A stretch of 64,000 nt of DNA from Terriglobia bacterium (GCA_963664115.2 CAXWPJ010000006.1:224088-288087), one strand, 5' to 3'. Shown: positions 6,874 through 39,581, numbered from the stretch's first letter. Notes: a model not told the origin generated them from the sequence alone. Translations and numbers: made by a program.

Positions 6874-6982
6874 TTGAGAAACTACAACGAGCCCTCTTTG
6901 GCAGCCCTTGAGACTTCTGCCACGGGCTGTTAGGCCTTGGGTTCCGTCCGAATTTTTCGATCCCATAGGGAGTTTCAAGAAT

Positions 6983-7837
6983 ATGAACTGCACGAGGGAA
7001 GGGTTGCTGCGACAAAGAGTTCGAACCGCGTTGGGATTTTCGATTTTCGCCCTGCTTCTGCTGGGTTGTATGCCGATCCAGCTGTCGGCACAGCTGCCCG
7101 ACGCGTCCAACGGAGTGCCGGATCTGACCGGAATCTGGTCGAGAGGTAGAAATAACTGTACGCCTAATGGCGTGACCTGCCCCTTCATCTTCAGCGAAAT
7201 TCCACTGAAAGCGCGTGCGATAGGATTCATGGCCGCGTGGGACGAGGCCGCGGGACCCAAGTACGATTGTGTGCCGGCGACGTCACCGTCTGTTGTGGCG
7301 GACCCGTATTCCATTCAGATCGAGCAACAGATAGACCGCGTCATCTTCACTTACGAGAAGGACGACATCATTCGGACAGTCTGGCTGGAGGGTCACGGAC
7401 ACCCGGACCCGCAACCCTACGACTTTACAGTGCAGGGATACTCGACCGGCCGATATGAGGACGGAAACCTTGTCGTTGAGACGACGAAGTTCACCTTCGA
7501 TCCGCACGGGCTGGACGACATGGCGAACGTGCCATCCTCCACGTTGAAGCGCGTCGTTGAAAGTTCCTCCACGTTGAAGTGCGTCGTTGAAAGTTATTCG
7601 TCGGATGGAGAAAACATGAGGGCGGAGGTGGTGACAGAAGATCCCGTCTTTCTAAACGGGCCGATCCAGTTTGCCATTGAGTGGGTTCCCCAGGACGAAC
7701 CCTTGATACTTCCATATGCCTGCCTGCCAGAACTGGCGAGACAGCCGGCGCAGTTTATTCCTTCAAAATACGAAGATCCGGACATGTTCAGGGTGCGCCT
7801 TCCCGCTGCATTTCCACCGGCTGGAGAGCCCGAGTGA
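6983..7837 (+). CDS. Secreted partner protein of unknown function (copy 1)
   Basis: Signal peptide ..LLGCMPIQLSAQ. Collinear motifs DLTGIW, RTVWLEGHGHP, GYSTGRYEDGNLVVETTKF, EDPVFL and PYAC are shared with the genes at 35322 and 38128. ATG at 6983 is preferred to the listed TTG at 6908. Confidence 0.8.
   Translation: MNCTREGLLRQRVRTALGFSIFALLLLGCMPIQLSAQLPDASNGVPDLTGIWSRGRNNCTPNGVTCPFIFSEIPLKARAIGFMAAWDEAAGPKYDCVPATSPSVVADPYSIQIEQQIDRVIFTYEKDDIIRTVWLEGHGHPDPQPYDFTVQGYSTGRYEDGNLVVETTKFTFDPHGLDDMANVPSSTLKRVVESSSTLKCVVESYSSDGENMRAEVVTEDPVFLNGPIQFAIEWVPQDEPLILPYACLPELARQPAQFIPSKYEDPDMFRVRLPAAFPPAGEPE
7535..7594 (+). repeat. In-frame 30 bp tandem duplication inside the CDS 6983-7837
   Basis: TCCTCCACGTTGAAGCGCGTCGTTGAAAGT occurs twice in tandem (7535-7564 and 7565-7594) with one mismatch. 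It encodes SSTLKRVVES / SSTLKCVVES. Confidence 0.95.
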
Positions 7838-27965: not shown

Positions 27966-28662
27966 CCGGCATGCTCGTCCGACTGAGACATTCAACGCAG
28001 ACGCTTCGGACGAACACCAACTCATCTGATTTGATGGACGGAAAGGGAAGCATCAACCCGGAGAATAAGGATCATGATGTGACCAAGGGGATTGGCATTT
28101 ATTGGGGCCCGTCCGGGTCGGGCGCCATCACTGCCATCGACGGGGAACTTGAATTCTTCCACCTCGTTGTCCAGCAGATACCGGGGTAGACGTCCATTTC
28201 CTGAGCGTTACGCCCCTACCCTTAAAGGCGAGCGGTTTGAAGCGGCCTGCGGACCCTGCCGGCTGCCTACCCCCATCTATGGTTTCTCCTAGCTTATTTC
28301 TCAAGAGGAGCCCTGCATTTTAATGACACTGTAAATTGTTATTTTCAAGATGTTTGCGGCGTTATTTGGCTAGTTTTATTGGGGTCGGAAGGTCAGGAAT
28401 CAAAGCAGGCACACCCATTGGAGCGGGCGCTCATCGAGCGCGCCTTCCGAATGCAGATCGCGATGGATTTTGAAAGGTGCTTCCACCACTCTTTCATCTC
28501 CAAATGGCCTGCTTAAGAGAGGCTAAGAGTCCCGGAAAGTAGAGGTTGACTCGCCCATTGCGGCGGTATAGCATTTCGCACTAAGTCTCGTCTCCTCACT
28601 GATAATGGGGGAGTTACGAGTGATTGAACCTTTTTCGTGTGTTTCGAGTGGAGGAAAACTCT

Positions 28663-31600
28663 ATGAAGCGACTAGTTACATGTCTTCTGGGTGTGGTCTT
28701 GATGACCGCGCTTGTATCCGTGCCAATGTTTGCGCAGGGTACAGCCCAGATTACAGGAACCATTTCAGACGCCACCGGCGCATTGTTGCCGGGCGTCGAT
28801 GTGTCTGTGACGAACACCGCGACGGGCGTGACCCGTGCGGTGGTCAGTAACGAAACCGGAGCCTATTCGTTGCAGAGCCTTCCGATTGGTGCCTACCAGT
28901 TGGAGGTGAGCTTGCCGGGCTTCCAGACCTTCGTGCAGACCGGCGTTTTGGCAGTCAATGACTCGGCCAATATCAATGTGAGCTTGCAGGTTGGCCAGGT
29001 GGCGCAGACCATCGAGGTTCAGGCCAATGCAGCCCTCGTTGAGACTCGTACGGTGGGTGTCGGCGAGCTCATTGAAAGCGCACGAATTCTGGAACTGCCC
29101 TTGAACGGCCGGAACGTGACCGAGTTGATCGTGCTCTCAGGTGCCGCGGTGTCGACGGGGACGTCGTCTTCGCGGAGCATGCCGGGGCAGCAGGAGATTT
29201 CGGTTGCGGGCAGCCAGCAGGGCGCTGTGGCCTACCTGTTGGACGGGGCACCCCACAACAACTGGTACGACAATCTGGCATTGCCGCTGCCGTTCCCGGA
29301 TGCGCTGGGTGAGTTCAAGATCGAAACCAGTGCGCTGCAGGCCCAGCAGGGACTGCGCTCGGGCGCGAACGTCAACGCCGTCACGCGCTCTGGAACGAAC
29401 GAGTTTCACGGCAACCTGTTCTGGTTCGTAAGGAATGACTTGTTCGGTGCCCGCGAGTATGGCGCCGCACGCAACAGTACGCTGAAGAGGAACCAGTACG
29501 GCGGGACCATCGGCGGACCGATCGCCCAGAACAAGCTGTTCTTCTTTACCGGCTACCAGGCCACGATCCAGCGGCGGGATCCCGGGACCACGGAACGTTA
29601 CCTTCCGACGCCCTATGCATTATCCACAGGCGACTGGAGCAAGATGTTGGACCCAGGATGCAGACCGCCGACTTCGAGTCTGTCCTCGACGCTCGAAAAT
29701 AGCACGACGGCGTCCGGCTATACCGGTGGCAACAAGATCGATCCGGCCTTGTACAGCCCGGTCGCGATGAATCTCATGAGTCGACTGCCGACCAACCTGA
29801 CCGACGACTGTGGCCGTCTCCTGTTCGGCAACATTTTGCAGGACAACGACTGGCAGTTGGTCAGCCGCGTGGACTATCAGATGTCCGATTCCCACTCCAT
29901 CCTGGGTCGTGTTCTGGTCACAACCGCGGATCGACCCAACCCGTATTCGATATCGGGCAATCCGCTGGCCAGCACCGTTGCTGGCTGGGATGACATGGCG
30001 CAGTCCATCACGTTGGGTGACACCTGGCTGATCAACCCGACAACGGTGTTGTCGACGCGTCTGGCGGTCAACTACAGCGAAATTTTACGTCTGGGCGCGG
30101 AATTCTTCAGCTGGGTCGATCTGGGCGTCAACAACTACTACACGTATCCCGACGTGGAGAAGTTCTTACGGATGGGCGCGGATGACGGCTTCTCGCTGGG
30201 CGGTTGTACGACCAATCCGGCGCCGTTTAAGACGTTCTCGGCCAGCATCAATTCCGACCTGAGTCTGTCCCGCGGCGACCACCAGTGGGGTTTGGGCGGA
30301 TATTTCAATCGGCTGGACTCCAACGGATACGCCAACTGTAACTCGGCCGGGAACTTCGACTTTGAAGGGAACCACACCGGCTGGGGCCTGGCCGACTTGA
30401 TGATCGGTCAGACGAATGACTTCACGCAGGCGACGCCGAACACGGCGCTGTCGAAGAAGTGGGTCGGCGCACTATATGTGGCCGACACCTGGCGCCTGAC
30501 GCCCAATGTGACGATGAGTTACGGCGTGCGTTGGGAGCCCGATTATCCCGAGACGATCACGAACGACCGCATCGTCAAGTTCTCCCGGGCTGCCTTTGAT
30601 GCCGGGACCAAGAGCTCGGTGTTCGTGAATGCGCCTGCGGGTATGTCCTTCGTGGGCGACTCCGGATTCCAGGGCACGAGCGGCCGGGACACGTTCGTTG
30701 CGAATTTCGCACCGCGGGTCGGTCTGGCATGGGACCTGTTCGGCGATGGCCGGACTTCGATCCGTGCATCCGGCGGGATCGGTTATGACTATCCCGACGG
30801 GCAGTTCCATCTGTGGACCTCCCTGACGCCGCCGTTCGGCGCGGACGTGAGGATTCCGAATGCGACCCTGGCCGATCCCTGGGCGACATTCCCCGGTGGG
30901 CGGACCCATCCGGTGAACACCACCGATCCCAACATCGGGTTCCCGCGGTTCCCGCGCATGTCGGCGATAGGAGATAACCTCCGGTCGTCGCAGACACAGA
31001 ACTGGAACCTGGCCCTGCAGCAGCAGGTCGGGGGCGACTGGCTGATGTCGACGACGTACATGGGCAGCCACACCATCAACATGGCGGGGGCCACCCAGAT
31101 GAACCCGGCGATTTACTTCCCGGGTGCGCCGGTGGACGGAGCGTGTACGGTCAGCCATTCCGGGGGGGTTATGATCCCGGCCGGAACTTACACGCTGAAC
31201 ACAGGCGGAGGCAGTTGCTCCACGAACGGCAATGTCAACAATCGGCGGATCCTGTCCCTGGTGGACGCCGCTAACGGACTCAATTATGGAGCTCTTGGCC
31301 TCACGCACAGCGGCGGGACGTCCAGCTACAACGGGCTGCTCGTCAGCATGCAGCGGCGCGCCGCTACAGGCATCAATATCAACACCAACTACACGTGGTC
31401 TCACTGCATCTCTCCGTATCACGATGATGGATTTGGCGGGACGGGTTTCAATGGAGACAACGTGTATCACGACCCGGACAACCGGGGCCGCAGCCGCGGG
31501 AACTGCCAGCAGGACCGGCGTCACAACTTCACGTTCACGACCATCGCCCGCTCGCCTGAGTTTGCCAATGCCGGCCTCCGGGCGGTCGCTTCGGACTGGG

Positions 31601-32043
31601 GTTTGTCGGTGATCTACCGCGCGAACTCGGGCAGCTATCTGAACATTCGGAGCGGTTCCCGGGATCTTGCGCGCAACGGCGTGAACCCGGGTAACCAGCT
31701 CGTGAACTACAACGGTGGCACGACGACCGGGGACGACGGGCCGGACGGGCAGTACCTGGTCCCGGCAGCGTTCTCGAACGCTGCGAAGGGCACATTCGGC
31801 AACCTGGGCCGTCGCAGCGTCCGGGGACCGAAGCAGTGGGATTTCGACGTCGCGCTGGCCCGGACGTTCAATCTGGGTGAGACCGAGACGCTGGAATTCC
31901 GGCTCGAGGCCTATAACCTGACGAACAGTTACCGTCCAGGCAGCCCGGAAGCCCGCGTGGGCCGCAGGAACTTTGGTGTGACTCGGGCTTTGGGTGCCGA
32001 CGATCCCCGGGTTCTGCAGTTCGCTCTGAAGTTGGGCTTCTAA
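28663..32043 (+). CDS. TonB-dependent receptor with an N-terminal carboxypeptidase-regulatory-like domain
   Basis: ATG at 28663 preceded by GAGGAAA. Signal peptide ..VPMFAQG. GTISDATGALLPGVDVSVTNTATGVTRAVVSNETGAYSLQSLPIGAYQLEVSLPGFQ is the CarbopepD_reg-like domain. A plug region follows, and the protein ends in the C-terminal aromatic residue (..FALKLGF). Confidence 0.9.
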   Translation: MKRLVTCLLGVVLMTALVSVPMFAQGTAQITGTISDATGALLPGVDVSVTNTATGVTRAVVSNETGAYSLQSLPIGAYQLEVSLPGFQTFVQTGVLAVNDSANINVSLQVGQVAQTIEVQANAALVETRTVGVGELIESARILELPLNGRNVTELIVLSGAAVSTGTSSSRSMPGQQEISVAGSQQGAVAYLLDGAPHNNWYDNLALPLPFPDALGEFKIETSALQAQQGLRSGANVNAVTRSGTNEFHGNLFWFVRNDLFGAREYGAARNSTLKRNQYGGTIGGPIAQNKLFFFTGYQATIQRRDPGTTERYLPTPYALSTGDWSKMLDPGCRPPTSSLSSTLENSTTASGYTGGNKIDPALYSPVAMNLMSRLPTNLTDDCGRLLFGNILQDNDWQLVSRVDYQMSDSHSILGRVLVTTADRPNPYSISGNPLASTVAGWDDMAQSITLGDTWLINPTTVLSTRLAVNYSEILRLGAEFFSWVDLGVNNYYTYPDVEKFLRMGADDGFSLGGCTTNPAPFKTFSASINSDLSLSRGDHQWGLGGYFNRLDSNGYANCNSAGNFDFEGNHTGWGLADLMIGQTNDFTQATPNTALSKKWVGALYVADTWRLTPNVTMSYGVRWEPDYPETITNDRIVKFSRAAFDAGTKSSVFVNAPAGMSFVGDSGFQGTSGRDTFVANFAPRVGLAWDLFGDGRTSIRASGGIGYDYPDGQFHLWTSLTPPFGADVRIPNATLADPWATFPGGRTHPVNTTDPNIGFPRFPRMSAIGDNLRSSQTQNWNLALQQQVGGDWLMSTTYMGSHTINMAGATQMNPAIYFPGAPVDGACTVSHSGGVMIPAGTYTLNTGGGSCSTNGNVNNRRILSLVDAANGLNYGALGLTHSGGTSSYNGLLVSMQRRAATGININTNYTWSHCISPYHDDGFGGTGFNGDNVYHDPDNRGRSRGNCQQDRRHNFTFTTIARSPEFANAGLRAVASDWGLSVIYRANSGSYLNIRSGSRDLARNGVNPGNQLVNYNGGTTTGDDGPDGQYLVPAAFSNAAKGTFGNLGRRSVRGPKQWDFDVALARTFNLGETETLEFRLEAYNLTNSYRPGSPEARVGRRNFGVTRALGADDPRVLQFALKLGF

Positions 32044-32066
32044 CTTAGAGTTACAAACAGTCATCG

Positions 32067-32097
32067 AGCGGCGGGGGCCCAGCCTCCGCCGCTTTTT
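32067..32097 (+). terminator. Rho-independent terminator of the TonB receptor gene
   Basis: AGCGGCGGGGG ... CCTCCGCCGCT stem followed by TTTTT. Confidence 0.75.
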
Positions 32098-32110
32098 CGT
32101 GGGCTGGAAA

Positions 32111-32173
32111 GGGACGGACACTTCCGTTGACATTTGGGCCTTATTGCGGTGTTTCGACTGAAGTGTCCGTCCC
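32111..32173. repeat. Palindromic element copy E2
   Basis: GGGACGGACACTTC (32111-32124) and GAAGTGTCCGTCCC (32160-32173) with a 35 nt loop CGTTGACATTTGGGCCTTATTGCGGTGTTTCGACT. Confidence 0.95.
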
Positions 32174-32325
32174 ACCCAAGAGCTCACGCGACGTTCCCCG
32201 GTGGGGGTGGCACAGTGTCGCCGAATCGCGCTAATATACGAGTGTGCTCCGAGTCGGCGCCTTCATAAAATTGCTATCCTTTCGGGAACTTATAATTCAG
32301 CAAAGAGTGGTCAGGAGAGTGTGAA

Positions 32326-33189
32326 ATGCGTTTTTGTCGTTTTGGAGAGGACCGTCTCGGTCTGGTCGAAGGTTCCCAGGTGCGGGATGTCACTGCGGCG
32401 CTCGATGTATTGCCCGATTACCGGTATCCACTGCCCGTAGTCGATCAGTTCATCGTAAATCTCGACAAGGTTTCGGCAAAGGCAAAGGCCATTGCCGCGG
32501 ATGCACCTCTCCTGGATCTGGCAGGGCTGAAGCTCCTGAGCCCTGTGGCGAATCCCAGCAAGATCGTCGGTGCGCCCGTTAACTACCAGAAACATATCGA
32601 CGAAGCCAAAGCCGATGCCGGTATTAATTCTGGGAACCCGGCCAACCTGGCCCCGATCCAAAAGATCGGCCTGTTTCTGAAGGCCTGTAGCGCGCTGGTG
32701 GGGCCGGGCGAGGGCATCGGTTTGCGAAAACTGGACCGCCGTAACGATCACGAAGTGGAGTTGGCCGTGGTGATGGGAAAAGCGGCGAACAGTGTGGCAG
32801 CGGCGGATGCGCTCGATTACGTCGCCGGTTATGCTATTGGCCTCGACCTTACGATTCGGGGTCCGGAAGAACGTTGCCTCAGGAAATCTCCCGACAGCTA
32901 CGCCGTTCTGGGTCCGTGGATCGTGACTGCGGACGAGATCGATGACCCGAACAACCTCGACCTGAAGCTTACGGTCAACGGTGAAGTCCGACAGGATTCC
33001 AATACGAAGCTCATGATCCTCAACGTGCGCCAGCTTATCGAGTACGCGTCGTCTTTCTACACGCTGCAGCCCGGCGACATCATTATTACAGGGACGCCGG
33101 AAGGGGTCAGTCCTATCGTGCCGGGAGACACGATCGTTGCGACTATAGAAAAGATCGGATCCATGGAAGTTGCCGTGCGGGCCGCGTGA
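32326..33189 (+). CDS. Fumarylacetoacetate hydrolase (FAH) family protein
   Basis: 287 aa. HEVELAVVMGK, GPWIVTADEIDDPNNLDLKLTVNGEVRQDSNT and GDIIITGTPEGV are FAH-family signatures. Confidence 0.9.
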   Translation: MRFCRFGEDRLGLVEGSQVRDVTAALDVLPDYRYPLPVVDQFIVNLDKVSAKAKAIAADAPLLDLAGLKLLSPVANPSKIVGAPVNYQKHIDEAKADAGINSGNPANLAPIQKIGLFLKACSALVGPGEGIGLRKLDRRNDHEVELAVVMGKAANSVAAADALDYVAGYAIGLDLTIRGPEERCLRKSPDSYAVLGPWIVTADEIDDPNNLDLKLTVNGEVRQDSNTKLMILNVRQLIEYASSFYTLQPGDIIITGTPEGVSPIVPGDTIVATIEKIGSMEVAVRAA

Positions 33190-33242
33190 TGAAAACAGGA
33201 CACTTGTCAGCGGGACCTCTACGTGTCGGAGGGGTGTAAAAC

Positions 33243-34328
33243 GTGAAGGAATCGAAAGAACTCAAGGCCCAGGCCTTTTCCTTTCAGAAGCCTGAAGCGA
33301 CAGAGGAACTGAAGGATTTCTACGACAGGCTGGGGGCCAGAAACATTGTGCCACTGTGGGAAATTCTCGGGGATGTACTAACAGCGTCGCCCACGACTCC
33401 CTGTGTGCCGGCCATATGGCGTTTCGACGACATCCGGCCCCTCCTGATGGAAGCCGGAGACTTGATCACGACGGAGGAAGCCGAACGCCGCGTCCTGTCG
33501 TTGCAGAATCCCGGGCTGAATGGTCAGCCGTGGATCACGACGAGCCTGTATGCCGCTCTCCAGTTGGTCCAGCCGGGTGAAATTGCTCAGTCCCATCGTC
33601 ACACCGCATCGGCCCTGCGATTCGTACTGGAGAACGGTGACGGTGGATACACATCGGTCGACGGCGAAAAAAGCACGATGCAGCCGGGTGATTTTGTTCT
33701 CACGCCTTCCTGGACGTTCCATGATCACGGAAATCCCGGAGACAAACCTATCATCTGGATGGACGGTCTGGATGTTCCGATTATCAATATGCTGGGTGTT
33801 AATTTCGCGGAGACCTGGCCCGAGCTGACCTATCCGGTGACCAAGACCGAGGGCGACGCCCTGACACGCTTCGGGAACAACCTTCTCCCTGTCGAATACA
33901 AGTCGTCATCTATGGCAGCGCCGATTTTTAACTACCCCTATTCACGGAGTCGCGAAGTACTTGAGCAGCTCTATAAGAACGGTCCGGTCCATGAGTGTCA
34001 CGGCGTGAAGTTGCAGTATGTGAATCCAGCTACCGGAGGGTACCCGATGCCGTCGATCGCAGGATTCATTCAGTTGCTGCCGCCCGGGTTCAAAGGAGAA
34101 GCGTACCGGTCGACCGATGGTACGGTATATTGCCCGACCGAAGGCAGCGGGCGGACGACAATTGGCAACCATACCTACGAGTGGAAGGAGCACGACGTCT
34201 TCGTTGTTCCGACATGGTATCGGGTGACCCATGAAACTGAAGAGGGCGCAGTCCTGTTCAGTTTCTCGGACCGCGCGGCGCAGAAGGCCCTGGGTTTGTG
34301 GAGAGAAGAAGCCCCGATTCTCGCTTGA
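33243..34328 (+). CDS. Gentisate 1,2-dioxygenase (bicupin)
   Basis: 361 aa. FYDRLGARNIVPLWE, HRHTASALRFVLENGDGGYTSVDGEKSTMQPGDFVLTPSWTFHDHGN is the characteristic cupin/His region of gentisate dioxygenases. Confidence 0.85.
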   Translation: MKESKELKAQAFSFQKPEATEELKDFYDRLGARNIVPLWEILGDVLTASPTTPCVPAIWRFDDIRPLLMEAGDLITTEEAERRVLSLQNPGLNGQPWITTSLYAALQLVQPGEIAQSHRHTASALRFVLENGDGGYTSVDGEKSTMQPGDFVLTPSWTFHDHGNPGDKPIIWMDGLDVPIINMLGVNFAETWPELTYPVTKTEGDALTRFGNNLLPVEYKSSSMAAPIFNYPYSRSREVLEQLYKNGPVHECHGVKLQYVNPATGGYPMPSIAGFIQLLPPGFKGEAYRSTDGTVYCPTEGSGRTTIGNHTYEWKEHDVFVVPTWYRVTHETEEGAVLFSFSDRAAQKALGLWREEAPILA

Positions 34329-34518: not shown

Positions 34519-34914
34519 ATGAAATCTAAAATTCTTGTTCTGCTTGTCGCTGGAATATTGGTATCGGGCGTGGCGGCCTATGCCCACCACTCCTTCACAG
34601 CGACTTACGATGAAGATGGATTGGTCGAGATTGAAGGGGAGTTGGTGCAGTTCCTTTTCCGCAATCCCCACTCCTGGGTCCATGTGATGGCTCCGGATGA
34701 AAATGGCGATTTGGTTCGCTACGGCGTCGAATGGGGTGGAGCCGGCCAGTTGGCGGGCGGCGGCGTGACCCGGTCTACGCTGAGGCCTGGCGACCACGTC
34801 ATTATTAGCGGTAACCCGGGGCGCAATCCTGCGGATCATAGAATCCGGATGCGGAGTCTCCGGAGGACGTCCGACAATTTTGGTTGGGGATTTGAAGGCG
34901 AAGACTTCGACTAG
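34519..34914 (+). CDS. Small secreted protein, His-His mature N-terminus family (copy 3)
   Basis: Signal peptide ..SGVAAYA, then HHSFTATYDEDGLVEIEGELVQFLFRNPHSWVHV. The mature part differs from copy 4 at only three residues. Confidence 0.9.
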   Translation: MKSKILVLLVAGILVSGVAAYAHHSFTATYDEDGLVEIEGELVQFLFRNPHSWVHVMAPDENGDLVRYGVEWGGAGQLAGGGVTRSTLRPGDHVIISGNPGRNPADHRIRMRSLRRTSDNFGWGFEGEDFD

Positions 34915-34957
34915 AGCTAAGCTTCACCCCTGCTGATCCCAGCAAAACGAAGACCAT

Positions 34958-35006
34958 AGGGCACGGTGTCCGCGTATTCGAGGATGCCGTGCCCTTACGC
35001 CGTTTT
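34958..35006 (+). terminator. Terminator-like hairpin after 34519-34914
   Basis: AGGGCACGG ... CCGTGCCCT (9 bp stem, ~20 nt loop) followed by ..CGTTTT. Confidence 0.4.
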
Positions 35007-35321
35007 GGTACCATTTTGATGAAGCCAATCGGTCGTGTCCGAACAGACAGCCGGGCGCTCCGAATGCCCTAGCCCCACCCGAGGTGTCCTGATGGTGACT
35101 GTGACGCTTCGCGGCGACAACCCGTGAGAAATGCGGGCTAAGACTTTTGCAATCAAATTCTTGACAAAGGATGTGCGGCTGTAGATAGTGGGGTGTCGCG
35201 CCTGTTTTCGGGATAAAAGCGGCTGTTTTGAGGCGCAGAGGTCACCCGAGAATCGTGTCGCGCCCCAAGGGGGAAAACGCCGCTCGTATTCGGAAGCTCA
35301 ACCGCCGAACCGGAGGATTAA

Positions 35322-36254
35322 ATGGATAAAGTCAGCCAGGCCAGGATTGTCGCTCCAGCGCTTCTGCTGGGTGCAATGCTGATTGTCGTGCCCGCCTTTG
35401 CGCAGACGGATTTGTCCGGCGAATGGAGGGTTGTCAGAAGTGAAGACAACTTTCACAATCCTTACAACGGAGATACGGGAGGCCTTCCGATGAACGCATC
35501 CGCGTTCAGGAGAGCCGACAGTTGGGACGCCTCGATCCAGTCACTGCCCGAATGGCAGTGTCGTCCCCACTCGGGCGCGTACATCACACGCGGTCCTTCA
35601 GCTCTGAAAATTTTCAAGCAAGTCGATCCTGTATCCCGGGAAATCGTTGCGTTCCATACCGAATGGTTGCGTTCAATCGACAATCCAATCTGGATGGACG
35701 GACGCGGGCATCCCTCAGAGTTAGCGCCGCATACCTGGTCGGGCTTCTCAACCGGCGAGTGGCAGGGCGATGTGCTCAAAGTGACGACGACGCATATGAA
35801 AGAGGATTATGTCCGGCGGAATGGCCCGCCTCAGGGCGACCGAACCACTATGACCGAATACCTGAGCCTCCGGTCGGTTGGGAATGAGGACTTTCTGTCC
35901 TGGACCAAGGTCGTATACGACCCCGACTACCTGACTGAGCCGCTCGTCCGAACAACGGAGTATATTCGGCGCCCGAACGCCCAAGTACCGCCTTATCCGT
36001 GTACGATCGTCACGGAAGTGGACCGGCCCAAAGGCTATGTGCCGAGCTGGTTCCCGGGTGAGAATCCGCATCTTGGAGAGCACGAAGAACACCTCGGTAT
36101 ACCCGCCGAAGCCAGCCGGCAGGGAGCCATCACGATGTATCCTGAGTTTCGGCAGGTCATCAAAGAGAACGGCTGGGAAGCGCGCCGCTTCGAATCAAAC
36201 ACGCCGGCGTTCGAGCAGCAACAAAATCAGCCGGCACCGCCGCAGCAACGATAG
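35322..36254 (+). CDS. Secreted partner protein of unknown function (copy 2)
   Basis: Signal peptide ..VVPAFAQ. TDLSGEWRV, PIWMDGRGHP, GFSTGEWQGDVLKVTTTH, YDPDYLTEP and PYPC are collinear with the genes at 6983 and 38128. GGAGGA RBS. Confidence 0.85.
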   Translation: MDKVSQARIVAPALLLGAMLIVVPAFAQTDLSGEWRVVRSEDNFHNPYNGDTGGLPMNASAFRRADSWDASIQSLPEWQCRPHSGAYITRGPSALKIFKQVDPVSREIVAFHTEWLRSIDNPIWMDGRGHPSELAPHTWSGFSTGEWQGDVLKVTTTHMKEDYVRRNGPPQGDRTTMTEYLSLRSVGNEDFLSWTKVVYDPDYLTEPLVRTTEYIRRPNAQVPPYPCTIVTEVDRPKGYVPSWFPGENPHLGEHEEHLGIPAEASRQGAITMYPEFRQVIKENGWEARRFESNTPAFEQQQNQPAPPQQR

Positions 36255-36360
36255 TTACTATGGGGCTGGCAGAATGCGGTGAGTCCCGAAAGGTTTCGAA
36301 AGCCTGCGGAACTTTCTATTTCGGGAACAACTCTTGTAATACAGTAGGTTGGAGTCATCG

Positions 36361-37485
36361 ATGAGGATAATCACCTTGAAAACCTCTGCCGGTTTGCGTA
36401 TCGCGCTGATGTGCGCTGCCCTCACTCTGCTCGCAGGAGCTGGCCTGGTGGAACGTGCACCGGCCCAGCAGAACGCCGAAATAGAAGTCGTCCATGTGCA
36501 AGGCAACATCTGGTTGTTTGGAGGAGTCGGTGGCAACGTCGTTGCTTCCCTCGGCCCTGACGGCGTCCTGTTAGTGGATGCTGGCCTCGAACCACGGGCG
36601 CCGGCATTGTTAGACGCGATCGGGGAACTGCAACGGGTACTCGATTTTGGGAGCGCACCGGCCCCCGCACGTTTCGGGGGAGCGGAGGGTTTGAAGACGA
36701 CGCCGACCTACACCCGCGCGCCGCCGAAACCGATTCGTTACATCATGAACACCCACTACCACCCGGATCACACGGGCGGCAATCAAACGCTTGCCGCTTC
36801 CGGAATAACCTACGCGGGGGGTAACGTTGCGGGCAGCATCAACGACGCGGATTTCGGTGCTGCGGTCTACGCGCATGAAAATACGCTCTTCCACATGGTG
36901 GATATGGACGTTCCGTTCCGCGGCCTGCCGACGGACACGTACTACAAAGAATTCTATAAACTCAGCCACTTCTTCAACGGCGAGGGCGTGCGTTTGGTTC
37001 ACCAGCCGAATGCCCATACCGATGGCGACAGCCTCGTGCACTTCCCGCGATCCGACGTCATCGTTGCGGGAGATATTTTTTTGACGACGAGCTATCCGAT
37101 CATCGATGTGGACCATGGGGGGCATGTCAACGGTATCGTCGACTCCTTGAACTACATACTCGACCTGGCCATCGCATCATTCAGAATGGAAGGAGGCACC
37201 TTGATCGTTCCCGGTCATGGAAGAATCAGCGATTCGGCCGACGTCGGCTACTATCGGGATATGGTGACGATCCTCAGGGACCATATTCAAATTATGATAA
37301 GCCGGGGCATGTCGCTCGAAGAAATAAAGGCAGCACAACCCACGCTGGGTTACGATGGCCGCTATGGCTCGGACACGGGTTTTTGGACGACTGACGACTT
37401 TGTTGAGGCTGTGTACCGGAACCTGACCGAAACCCCGGGGCCGATCCTGTATCCGGGATTAGCACCATACCCTTCGACGTTCTGA
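36361..37485 (+). CDS. Secreted MBL-fold metallo-hydrolase
   Basis: Signal peptide followed by the beta-lactamase-fold pattern, including NTHYHPDHTGGN (HxHxDH) and later His/Asp ligands (HTDGD, PGHG). Confidence 0.85.
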   Translation: MRIITLKTSAGLRIALMCAALTLLAGAGLVERAPAQQNAEIEVVHVQGNIWLFGGVGGNVVASLGPDGVLLVDAGLEPRAPALLDAIGELQRVLDFGSAPAPARFGGAEGLKTTPTYTRAPPKPIRYIMNTHYHPDHTGGNQTLAASGITYAGGNVAGSINDADFGAAVYAHENTLFHMVDMDVPFRGLPTDTYYKEFYKLSHFFNGEGVRLVHQPNAHTDGDSLVHFPRSDVIVAGDIFLTTSYPIIDVDHGGHVNGIVDSLNYILDLAIASFRMEGGTLIVPGHGRISDSADVGYYRDMVTILRDHIQIMISRGMSLEEIKAAQPTLGYDGRYGSDTGFWTTDDFVEAVYRNLTETPGPILYPGLAPYPSTF

Positions 37486-37610
37486 CGATGATTTGAGAAA
37501 TGTCGACCAATCGATGTTTCAATGAGCAGATAAACTGAATACAGAATATTACGGATAACTCACTTTTAATTTTATGTAAGAGACCGCCATTGTTTTAGGA
37601 GGAAGACCCG

Positions 37611-38006
37611 ATGAAGTTCAAACTGATCGCCCTTGCGCTTGCTGCCATGTTGGTGTCGGGTGTGGCTGCCTACGCTCACCATTCGTTCACCGCAACCTAC
37701 GATGAAGATGAATTGGTCGAGATCGAAGGGGAGTTGGTGCAGTTCCTTTTCCGCAATCCGCACTCCTGGGTCCATGTGATGGCTCCAGATGAAAATGGCG
37801 AGATCGTTCGCTACGGGGTCGAATGGGGTGGAGCCGGCCAGTTGGCGGGCGGGGGTGTGACCCGCTCCACGCTGAGACCCGGCGACCACGTCATTATTAG
37901 CGGTAACCCGGGGCGCAATCCTGCGGATCATAGAATCCGGATGCGAAGTCTTCGACGGACATCTGACAATTTTGGATGGGGATTTGAAGGCGAGGACTTC
38001 GACTAG
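37611..38006 (+). CDS. Small secreted protein, His-His mature N-terminus family (copy 4)
   Basis: Near-duplicate of 34519-34914. The signal peptides diverge, the mature parts are almost identical, and the DNA differs mostly at third codon positions. Confidence 0.9.
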   Translation: MKFKLIALALAAMLVSGVAAYAHHSFTATYDEDELVEIEGELVQFLFRNPHSWVHVMAPDENGEIVRYGVEWGGAGQLAGGGVTRSTLRPGDHVIISGNPGRNPADHRIRMRSLRRTSDNFGWGFEGEDFD

Positions 38007-38127
38007 TTTTAGAGATCTTGATCAACATCTTTCTGGATAAAGTAGAGATGAGAGGGCGATGGGCCCCCCGTGGAATTATGCCCGCCGCTCGGGTGCCGGA
38101 GGATGCCCGAGTGCCGGAGGAGAAAGA

Positions 38128-38922
38128 ATGATTCACAGAGTCCCACCAAAGACCGCTCTGTTGGCGTTGGCGGTTGTGGTGGTCATTGCACTTGTTGCGG
38201 GAGTGCCGGATGCATCGGCCCAGACAGGCGGCGGTGAGGCGCCACAGAGTGCGAGAGACGCGGCCCCGATCGATCTCGGAGGGTACTGGGTGTCTTTGGT
38301 CAACGAGGATTGGCGTCATCGTATGTTCACGGCGCAGGTTGGTGATTACGATCTCGTGCGTCTAAATGCCGATGGTCGCCGTATGGCGGACGCCTGGGTC
38401 CAAGAGGCGTCGCCGACGGGAGACGACTGTCTAATGACCTATGGTGCGGCGGGTATCATGCGCTTGCCTGGCCGGTTGCACATCGATTGGGCCGACGACA
38501 ACACACTGCAAGTCGACCTGGATGCCGGAACTCAGACCCGGCAGTTCTTTTTCGGAGAATCCGAATCGCCAGGTGGGCAACCGACCCGGCAAGGCTATTC
38601 CGTAGCTCGGTGGGAGACCTCCGGCGGCTCGGGGCGAGGCGGCGTGTCCATGAACGACATTCCATTGGGCGGACACCTGAAGGTGGTGACAACCAACCTT
38701 TCGGCCGGGTATCTCTTCAAGAACGGAATCCCGTATAGTAGCGACGCAGTGATGACCGAGTTTTTTGTCCCCATCGTGGAACCGGATGGTAGTCAGTACG
38801 TCTTGGTTCAGACCTTTGTTCAGGATCCGACTTATCAGACCCAGACCTTCGTGCGGACGCTGACCTTCAAGAAGGAATCCGACGGTCGGAACTGGAATCC
38901 GACGCCCTGTACTGAGTACTAA
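38128..38922 (+). CDS. Secreted partner protein of unknown function (copy 3)
   Basis: ATG at 38128 preceded by GGAGGA. Signal peptide ..VPDASAQ. IDLGGYWVS, GYSVARWE, LKVVTTNL, QDPTYQTQ and TPC are collinear with the genes at 6983 and 35322. Confidence 0.8.
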   Translation: MIHRVPPKTALLALAVVVVIALVAGVPDASAQTGGGEAPQSARDAAPIDLGGYWVSLVNEDWRHRMFTAQVGDYDLVRLNADGRRMADAWVQEASPTGDDCLMTYGAAGIMRLPGRLHIDWADDNTLQVDLDAGTQTRQFFFGESESPGGQPTRQGYSVARWETSGGSGRGGVSMNDIPLGGHLKVVTTNLSAGYLFKNGIPYSSDAVMTEFFVPIVEPDGSQYVLVQTFVQDPTYQTQTFVRTLTFKKESDGRNWNPTPCTEY

Positions 38923-39089
38923 GGCGTTCATGGAGTCATCCGGCAGGAGCCTGCCGGTTGGAGTCTAAATCTTCTTTGGGCTGTAGAGGAGTATCTGAAG
39001 TGAACGCGTTTTTTGAGCTGCTCTTCTTGCGCTCTCATCTGAAACTGTTTCGCTGTGAATTTTACACACTAACGAAAGAATAAAATAAT

Positions 39090-39581
39090 ATGGATTTTTT
39101 GCTGTGGCTTGAAACGACTTCTCTCGGAACGTGGGTGCGCGAGTCGCCCTCCTTGTGGGCTTATCCCAGCGTTCTGTTCCTTCACTCGGTTGGCCTCGCA
39201 TCCCTCGTAGGTATCAACGCCGCAGTTGACTTGCGCGTCCTCGGCTTTGCAAAGGGCATCCCTTTAAAGCCGCTTTCGCAGATGATCCCGCTGATGTGGG
39301 TCGGTTTTGGAGTGAACGCTGTTTCGGGGCTGATGCTCATTCTGGCCAGCGCGTCGACATTACTGCTGAACCCGACTTTCTGGGTGAAGATGTTATTCGT
39401 CACGGCGGCTGTGGTAACCATATGGCTGATGGACAAACGGGTGTTTGCCAACGCAGACGAGGGGGCCATACCCATGGAAAGCAAGGTCCTGGCGGGGGTC
39501 TCGCTCTTCTGTTGGACTGGAGCCATGGTATCGGGCCGGTTGATTGCTTACCTGGGTCCGGAAGCAGGGTTCCTGGTTTAA
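39090..39581 (+). CDS. Hypothetical integral membrane protein (about four TM segments)
   Basis: 163 aa, strongly hydrophobic with four helix-length stretches. No family recognised with confidence. Confidence 0.6.
   Translation: MDFLLWLETTSLGTWVRESPSLWAYPSVLFLHSVGLASLVGINAAVDLRVLGFAKGIPLKPLSQMIPLMWVGFGVNAVSGLMLILASASTLLLNPTFWVKMLFVTAAVVTIWLMDKRVFANADEGAIPMESKVLAGVSLFCWTGAMVSGRLIAYLGPEAGFLV

Follow-up and report, generated by a model that had tools for sequence, protein, structure and literature searches.

An old duplication of a DUF6152 gene, probably homogenised by recurrent gene conversion, at a conserved secreted cassette of a Terriglobia bacterium

Two small genes encoding DUF6152 proteins lie about 3.1 kb apart in a 64,000-nucleotide stretch of DNA from a Terriglobia bacterium (GCA_963664115.2, CAXWPJ010000006.1:224088-288087). 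The whole stretch is referred to as the window, and positions are counted from its first letter; it corresponds to C6:224088-288087 of genome G000, which is 4.9 Mb in size and consists of 12 contigs. The small genes, A and B, are associated with two genes of a second family, partners A and B, and with one gene for a metallo-beta-lactamase (MBL)-fold hydrolase. The five genes are all on the plus strand:

34519..34914, plus strand: small gene A, encoding a secreted DUF6152 protein of 131 residues with a predicted OB fold (Pfam PF19649, 72.7 bits)
35322..36254, plus strand: partner A, a secreted barrel of the A-type subfamily, assigned by hhalign to the barrel half of natural fusion proteins
36349..37485, plus strand: MBL-fold hydrolase, secreted (Pfam Lactamase_B, 62 bits; HYHPDH motif)
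37611..38006, plus strand: small gene B, encoding a DUF6152 protein of 131 residues (Pfam PF19649, 75.4 bits)
38128..38922, plus strand: partner B, a secreted barrel of the B-type subfamily, 264 residues in length, assigned by hhalign in the same way

Both small genes score well above the PF19649 gathering cut-off of 27 bits, which places them in the family; both also carry AYA followed by HHSF across the predicted cleavage site and the conserved NPH motif, as is the signature of DUF6152. The hydrolase belongs to the MBL superfamily, its Lactamase_B score of 62 bits exceeding the cut-off of 22.7 and its HYHPDH motif being of the HxHxDH type. None of the curated subfamily models reached its cut-off with this protein, SoxH-like models matching weakly, and no close solved or curated relative was found. 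Other gene callers agree on the start of partner B and start the hydrolase at 36361 (374 residues). The partner family is matched by no Pfam or NCBIfam model. Partners A and B are homologous yet distant (26% identity, BLASTP E = 3e-10), in keeping with the high divergence described in the initial annotation of the locus. A third partner gene of the window (6908-7837) matches partner A (BLASTP E = 4e-13) and gave no BLASTP match to partner B (E = 0.1); all three belong to one hidden Markov model (HMM) family. Compared to the barrel half of natural DUF6152-barrel fusions, a family that includes C5:177521-178615, partner A has an hhalign probability of 97.4% (E = 1e-11) and partner B one of 95.1% (E = 3e-8).

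Four genes of the locus, in the order barrel A, MBL-fold hydrolase, DUF6152 and barrel B, make up one copy of a conserved secreted cassette. All four cassette products carry signal peptides. The nearest paralogues of the four genes occur in the same order at five places in G000, and this order recurs at at least 20 loci in other metagenome-assembled genomes (MAGs), which are labelled Acidobacteriota, Gammaproteobacteria (including Candidatus Rariloculaceae) and Rhodospirillales. Among the five cassettes of the genome, the window copy is the sole one with a leading small gene; in a sister genus (L056), the cassette adjoins the same FAH gene and has no leading small gene. Small gene B occupies the position of the single small gene in all other cassettes, and the position of A is empty in cassettes elsewhere in the genome and in other genera. 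No older small gene was found with either family HMM in the 408-nt gap between A and partner A. Small gene B is the original small gene of the cassette, and small gene A is an extra copy that is present only in this genus.

The initial annotation had described a module duplicated around the MBL hydrolase, a description that does not stand, for only the small gene was duplicated. The nearest paralogues of partners A and B are not each other; the two genes belong to two subfamilies that recur together in fixed order, the nearest paralogues of partner A always being located upstream of an MBL gene. Partners A and B are thus standard members of the two old barrel subfamilies of the cassette. Genome-wide, the identity between small genes tracks the identity between their partners (Spearman 0.46), the top pairs having small-gene identities of 0.6-1.0 against partner identities of 0.5-1.0. 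The window pair is the single outlier, with a small-gene identity of 0.91 against a partner identity of 0.27, and therefore only the small gene was copied. A second apparent outlier, C6:6000/C11:76564 (small genes 100%, partners 86%), was rejected as an artefact of open reading frame (ORF) boundaries within a 12-kb segment of 99.9% identity.

Some other copies of the cassette differ in detail. In the C2 copy, two ORFs that overlap each other take the place of an intact MBL gene (C2:725169-726358), and a frameshift or a pseudogene is probable. A variant at C7:86338-90116 is composed of an A-type barrel, an MBL gene, a B-type barrel and an A-type barrel, without small gene. At loci L058-L070, L080 and L086, labelled Gammaproteobacteria/Candidatus Rariloculaceae, the cassette is present and its small proteins are 65-81% identical to those of the window. 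The presence of the cassette under Gammaproteobacteria labels, the window's congeners being labelled Terriglobia/Acidobacteria, points to inter-phylum transfer or to unreliable labels.

The ORFs of small genes A and B are direct repeats of 396 nt each, offset by 3092 nt, and can be aligned without any indel. They differ at 50 nucleotides over the full ORF, corresponding to 87% identity. The mature parts (residues 23-131) differ only by G34E, D64E and L65I; among their 26 variable codons, 23 synonymous and 4 non-synonymous steps were counted by the Nei-Gojobori method, which gave a synonymous divergence (dS) of 0.39, a non-synonymous divergence (dN) of 0.016 and a dN/dS ratio (omega) of 0.04. 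Synonymous and non-synonymous change differ with p = 8e-13 in Fisher's test. In the signal peptides, 9 of the 22 residues are different, and almost all of these changes fall within codons 2-13. The placement of the repeats, the three residue differences, the predominance of synonymous changes and the divergence of the signal peptides had all been read correctly in the initial annotation. Synonymous change is also uneven along the gene; the proportion of synonymous differences (pS) reaches a saturated 0.76 over codons 1-22, whereas the mature part has a pS of 0.31 (Fisher p = 4e-4). Outside the genes, sensitive blastn of the flanks (150-300 nt) in the window genome and three congeners detected no similarity between A and B, and the similarity ends exactly at the ORF boundaries. 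The same arrangement is also present in independent assemblies, three other assemblies of the same species matching it, and because of this an assembly artefact was ruled out.

The mature protein is under strong purifying selection. The omega value is 0.04 between the copies and ∼0.06 between orthologues; for neighbouring genes, it ranges from 0.05 to 0.24 between species. The selection is hence not exceptional, and lies at the low end of the ordinary range.

Copy A probably forms its own transcription unit, judging from two elements between its stop codon and partner A:

34958..34995, plus strand: hairpin after the stop codon of A, from RNA folding of 34945-35025
35161..35189, plus strand: promoter-like site ahead of partner A (TTGACA, 17 nt, GATAGT), identified by consensus match only

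The hairpin begins 43 nt past the stop codon and has a 14-bp stem, with a folding energy of -34.7 kcal/mol and a z-score of -4.9. It was not called by a simple terminator scan; either a terminator or a repeat element is conceivable. The promoter-like site fits the consensus at 10 of 12 positions, and the surrounding region (35139-35296) is kept in relatives even where partner A is deleted. The hairpin region is detectable in G004 too; in L108, L111 and L114, the region upstream of partner A (35139-35296) now lies directly upstream of small gene B.

The duplication is old, predating the radiation of at least seven lineages, because both copies are common to these seven; that it was not very recent had been rightly stated before. 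The congeners G002 and G003 possess both small genes in the same synteny. In G001, L108, L111/L112 and L114, both are present in a rearranged form, from which the partner and MBL genes are gone. Compared to G000, the dS of neighbouring orthologues ranges from 0.4-0.8 for G002 up to 0.9-2.5 for G003.

The two ends of the small genes have different histories, and three segments were delimited:

34519..34560, plus strand: signal-peptide part of A (codons 1-14), which escaped homogenisation and is orthologous by position across species
34561..34914, plus strand: conversion tract of A, which takes in the last part of the signal peptide and all of the mature protein, based on by-genome sites and topology tests
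37653..38006, plus strand: conversion tract of B, delimited on the same basis

Over codons 2-14, the nucleotide p-distance is 0.46 between A and B, against 0.10-0.26 between A copies of different species. In the tree of nt 1-42, calculated from 17 sequences, the B copies form one clade with 99% bootstrap support. For these nucleotides, a topology in which the copies group by orthology was acceptable in the approximately unbiased (AU) test (p = 0.18-0.32), whereas the concerted topology, in which they group by genome, was rejected (log-likelihood difference 39, AU p = 4e-5). The opposite was observed for nt 43-393. The A and B copies of G003 paired with 100% support and those of L108 with 95%; the orthology topology was rejected with 11 sequences (log-likelihood difference 101, AU p = 2e-5) and also with 17 sequences (log-likelihood difference 140).

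Individual sites tell the same story. In the quartet of G000 and G003 copies, 40 informative sites group by genome, spread over codons 11-131, and 9 group by position, 6 of which fall in codons 3-7; by-genome sites dominate from about codon 11-18 through the stop codon. At the synonymous sites of the mature part, 16 group by genome against 2 by position, and with third codon positions only, the orthology tree was still rejected (p = 0.0012). Protein convergence is excluded, because the by-genome signal is also present at synonymous sites. For the same reason, purifying selection alone is insufficient to account for the near identity of the mature parts; strong selection, as had been proposed initially, is confirmed by the omega of 0.04, while its standing as the sole cause is not, since the grouping by genome reveals gene conversion.

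The distances between copies agree with this picture. Within genomes, the A-B dS is 0.20 for L108, 0.21 for L114, 0.39 for G000, 0.47 for L111, 0.59 for G003, 0.82 for G002 and 1.63 for G001; because these values vary so widely, homogenisation must be intermittent. The G003 copies differ from each other with a dN of 0.004 and a dS of 0.59, and from all other copies with a dN above 0.09 and a dS above 1.1. Similarly, L108 has an A-B dS of 0.20, while its copies are separated from those of its sister lineages by 0.30-0.40. In G000, a dS of 0.39 compares with 0.5-0.6 to orthologues, a weaker instance of paralogues being the closer relatives. In the mature part, paralogues are therefore closer than orthologues, positional orthology is established independently and the signal extends to synonymous sites, which together characterise concerted evolution. 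Gene conversion has recurred, with at least three events, which took place in G003, in L108 and in a common ancestor shared by G000, G002 and the L clade. In the last of these, A was overwritten by B-type sequence: the A copy of G001 is still of A type and clusters with the only such gene in G004, whereas the B copy of G001 groups with all G000 and G002 copies. An A-B dS of 0.39, compared to 0.4-0.8 for the neighbouring genes of G002, dates the last major homogenisation in G000 to about the age of the split from G002, its nearest sister species.

Several points weigh against this interpretation. The pairing of the G000 copies is weak (60% bootstrap), and in the quartet of G000 and G002 the synonymous informative sites split 5 to 5. 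The homogenisation seen in G000 may mostly have preceded the G000/G002 split, the strongest signal coming from G003 and L108. An exact run of 21 codons shared by A and B (codons 91-111, ∼65 nt; permutation p = 0.04) hints at a later small conversion patch in G000, and is only marginally unusual. The sequences are short, with 75 synonymous sites, so that dS is noisy; there is no independently established species phylogeny for the genus; and every genome compared is a MAG. The functional part of the interpretation is conjecture.

Deletions around the small genes exist among the relatives. The clade of L108, L111 and L114 lacks the segments equivalent to 35297-37530 (partner A and MBL) and 38055-39052 (partner B) of the window, and has kept both small genes, which are now 512 nt apart. 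The layout of G001 is similar. G004 lacks 35462-39011 and has retained A only. Among the relatives that lack partner or MBL genes, we found neither a deletion breakpoint inside the repeats nor an A/B recombinant. A C-terminal MBL fragment suggested by tblastn between A and B of G001 was not relied on, as it overlaps the alignment of the partner-A upstream region. The small genes outlast their neighbours, remaining intact and homogenised in lineages without barrels and MBL. A link between homogenisation and retention of the barrels was rejected, given that L108 and L114 have lost the barrels and yet have the most similar copies (dS 0.2). In G001, the barrels were lost and the A and B copies are divergent.

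The AlphaFold2 model of the small protein has a predicted local distance difference test (pLDDT) score of 92 and is of OB fold; its best matches in the PDB are SSB and the N-terminal domain of LysRS (Foldseek E ∼1e-3). His23, His24 and His51, which correspond to predicted mature residues 1, 2 and 29, are the only invariant residues among 86 paralogues. PDB sequence searches with the small-family and fusion-family profiles returned nothing meaningful. The natural fusion C5:177521-178615 has more than 2,200 database relatives, and was modelled with a pLDDT of 88.8 and a predicted template modelling (pTM) score of 0.84. The best non-OB matches of its barrel half are CRABP, CRBP and FABP; they are weak (E 4e-3 to 1e-2, TM 0.45-0.57 on the target). 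The modelled barrel half of this paralogous fusion suggests that the partners may have a pocket for a hydrophobic small molecule.

Two simpler histories of the small genes were considered. If a single, moderately old duplication had been followed by strong purifying selection only, without any conversion, the low omega of the mature part (0.04) and the diverged signal peptides (9 of 22 residues), being weakly constrained, would both be expected. Protein selection, however, cannot group synonymous sites by genome (16 versus 2; third positions p = 0.0012), nor can it yield the 2.5-fold gap in synonymous divergence between the gene ends (pS 0.76 versus 0.31) or bring the A-B distances of G003 and L108 below the orthologue distances; we regard this history as highly improbable. 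It would also be conceivable that every lineage gained its own duplicate of the small gene, always at the same place, each A/B pair being young, as the by-genome grouping of the mature parts in G003 and L108 would suggest. This conflicts with the first 14 codons, which are alike among all A copies and among all B copies (B clade 99%) and for which the concerted topology was rejected (p = 4e-5); moreover, position and flanks are conserved in seven of seven lineages, and none of the genomes checked has related flanks at A and B. Independent duplications are accordingly extremely unlikely.

Two further proposals, both reaching back to the initial annotation, concern the reason for the similarity of the copies and its consequences. 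From the gene arrangement, DUF6152 might be a common subunit, such as an adaptor or a metal-bearing cofactor protein, for several barrel 'specificity' subunits, the copies being kept alike to fit the same partners. In the conserved cassette, a single small gene accompanies two divergent barrels; barrel genes (∼145) outnumber small genes (∼124), and 49 of 137 unfused barrels have no adjacent small gene; physical association is indicated by natural fusions and by a two-domain model of good confidence (pTM 0.84); and both small genes are intact, and still homogenised, in lineages that lack barrels and MBL. Against this, small and barrel genes co-diverge pairwise across the genome, which suggests dedicated partnerships, and G001 keeps a divergent A/B pair (dN 0.09). 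In addition, conversion needs no selective reason, and closer repeats convert more (512 nt apart, dS 0.2). A common subunit is rather unlikely. The other proposal was that the 396-bp direct repeats serve as recombination substrate for deletion or amplification of partner A and MBL, as a form of switching. They are indeed 87% identical, with an exact stretch of ∼65 nt (codons 91-111), and partner A and MBL are absent from several relatives. But those relatives either retain both repeats or have breakpoints that lie outside them, the search for recombinants between the repeats in related genomes was negative, and the arrangement of the window recurs in three further assemblies of the species; such switching is very unlikely.

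We therefore consider, with considerable confidence, that the locus combines a conserved cassette, an old duplication of the small gene only, recurrent gene conversion and purifying selection. In the ancestor of the genus, the DUF6152 gene alone was copied to a place upstream of barrel A; copy A has a ribosome-binding site of its own and probably also a separate terminator. Since this old duplication, the flanks and the first ∼14 codons have diverged to saturation, and the remaining ∼350 bp have been overwritten by intrachromosomal gene conversion on at least three occasions in separate lineages. Once converted, the copies drift apart again, with purifying selection on the mature protein (omega ∼0.04) confining the changes almost entirely to synonymous positions. 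The analysis itself demonstrates the conserved cassette, the duplication of the small gene alone, the age of this duplication, the phylogenetic conflict between position and genome, and the selection; we infer the RecA type of recombination, the separate transcription of copy A and all of the biochemistry.

Concerted evolution is defined by paralogues within a genome being more similar than orthologues between species; in bacteria, it has been described as a result of gene conversion for tufA/tufB of Salmonella and Escherichia coli and for rRNA operons, and 26 genes have been listed (PMC6053082). The conversion of the tuf type is non-reciprocal and takes place between dispersed direct repeats on one chromosome, with tracts that end inside the homologous region (PMC5485169, PMC6053082). 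As in tufA/tufB, small genes A and B are closer within a genome than orthologues are, and the conflict between phylogenies along the gene is a classical mark of the process. In contrast to tufA/tufB, they encode a small secreted protein rather than a highly expressed translation component and are merely 3.1 kb apart; the tract spares the first ∼14 codons, so that each copy keeps its own signal peptide, and the homogenisation is intermittent (dS 0.2-1.6 by lineage) instead of near-continuous. The process is known, and the locus adds a new instance of it from an unstudied gene family.

This has consequences for how such pairs are read. Near-identical proteins with many synonymous differences mimic extreme purifying selection, whereas the main cause here is intermittent conversion. 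The dS between the copies dates the last conversion and not the duplication; the same trap is expected when other paralogues of this family are dated. The pair also illustrates cleanly, in a natural setting, how a conversion tract can end within a gene, giving a shared mature protein with separate signal peptides.

Like the Pfam DUF6152 family, A and B carry the invariant His-His-...-NPH signature, and each is followed by a partner-family gene. In the literature that we searched, no mention of DUF6152 was found; the four-gene cassette with its MBL hydrolase and two barrel subfamilies, and the duplication of the small gene only, are new for this family. The protein resembles LPMOs, CopC and YcnI in being secreted and in having His as predicted mature residue 1 together with further invariant His, and a gene for a membrane protein (DUF6644-like) is often near DUF6152, as in CopC/CopD. 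It differs from LPMOs, CopC and YcnI in its modelled fold, which is an OB barrel and not an immunoglobulin- or cupredoxin-like sandwich, and in having no sequence similarity to any solved structure. The sequence would allow copper coordination by the amino group and side chain of mature His1 together with a second His. As for the barrels, the barrel half of the modelled fusion matches the calycins FABP, CRABP and CRBP structurally, if weakly (TM 0.45-0.57); unlike these proteins, the barrels are secreted, about twice as long, possess a conserved Cys pair and have no sequence similarity to them.

These features invite two conjectures on function. The best guess, though a doubtful one, is that DUF6152 holds a metal through the invariant His 1, 2 and 29 and docks on the lipid-binding-protein-like barrels, that the barrels hold a hydrophobic or aromatic compound, which would be brought in through TonB-dependent receptors, and that the MBL hydrolase acts on it. 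A bolder and unlikely one is that a new modular periplasmic system has DUF6152 as its common metal-bearing subunit, the metal sitting on the N-terminal His-His and the NPH histidine, and that this subunit docks onto interchangeable barrels, each with its own hydrophobic or aromatic substrate and, in this cassette, together with the MBL hydrolase, conversion keeping the copies interchangeable so that they serve the same barrels; if this were true, the family would have expanded to more than 100 sets per genome. The cassette provides a defined unit, expressible and assayable, of an abundant and unstudied module, located beside genes for a TonB receptor and aromatic catabolism.

The genes around the cassette include the following:

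28624..34328, plus strand: upstream context, with a TonB-dependent receptor, an FAH-family hydrolase and a gentisate 1,2-dioxygenase (Pfam and NCBIfam)
39090..39581, plus strand: DUF6644-like membrane protein after the cassette (Pfam DUF6644, 25.8 bits, slightly below the cut-off)

A TIGR02272 match of 502 bits was obtained in the upstream context. Of the 16 paralogues of the DUF6644-like protein, 13 are encoded within 3 kb of DUF6152 or barrel genes, and the protein may belong to the module as its membrane part. Paralogues of the MBL hydrolase behave similarly, with 12 of 20 in the genome lying within 3 kb of module genes. Further downstream are genes for a Gfo/Idh/MocA oxidoreductase, a Dabb protein, a tannase/feruloyl esterase and an Amidohydro_2 enzyme.

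In G000 as a whole, 125 matches to DUF6152 were obtained. With HMMs built here and run on all ORFs, there are 124 small genes and 145 partner-family genes; the small-family number refers to the two-round set, as more rounds drifted to 227-256 hits. A partner gene lies within 700 bp on the same strand for 88 of the 116 unfused small genes, and 49 of the 137 unfused barrel genes are without an adjacent small gene. Eight ORFs, of 5 distinct sequences, are natural small-barrel fusions. The window pair therefore has a massively expanded set of paralogues in this genome of 4.9 Mb. The module genes are spread across nearly all contigs of the genome, at a density of 2-4 per 100 kb.

Other duplicates were also noticed. 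C6:1-12000 and C11:70995-83160 share more than 12 kb of 99.9% identity in opposite orientation, and several further exact duplicates of module genes occur on different contigs (C2/C11/C6 fusions, C4/C5 and C2/C2); they reflect either recent segmental duplication or redundancy of the MAG assembly. A second duplicate of a small gene only was observed as well: the copy at C10:230793-231483, which has no partner gene adjacent, is 88.6% identical to C4:107663-108338 over 692 nt, including short flanks.

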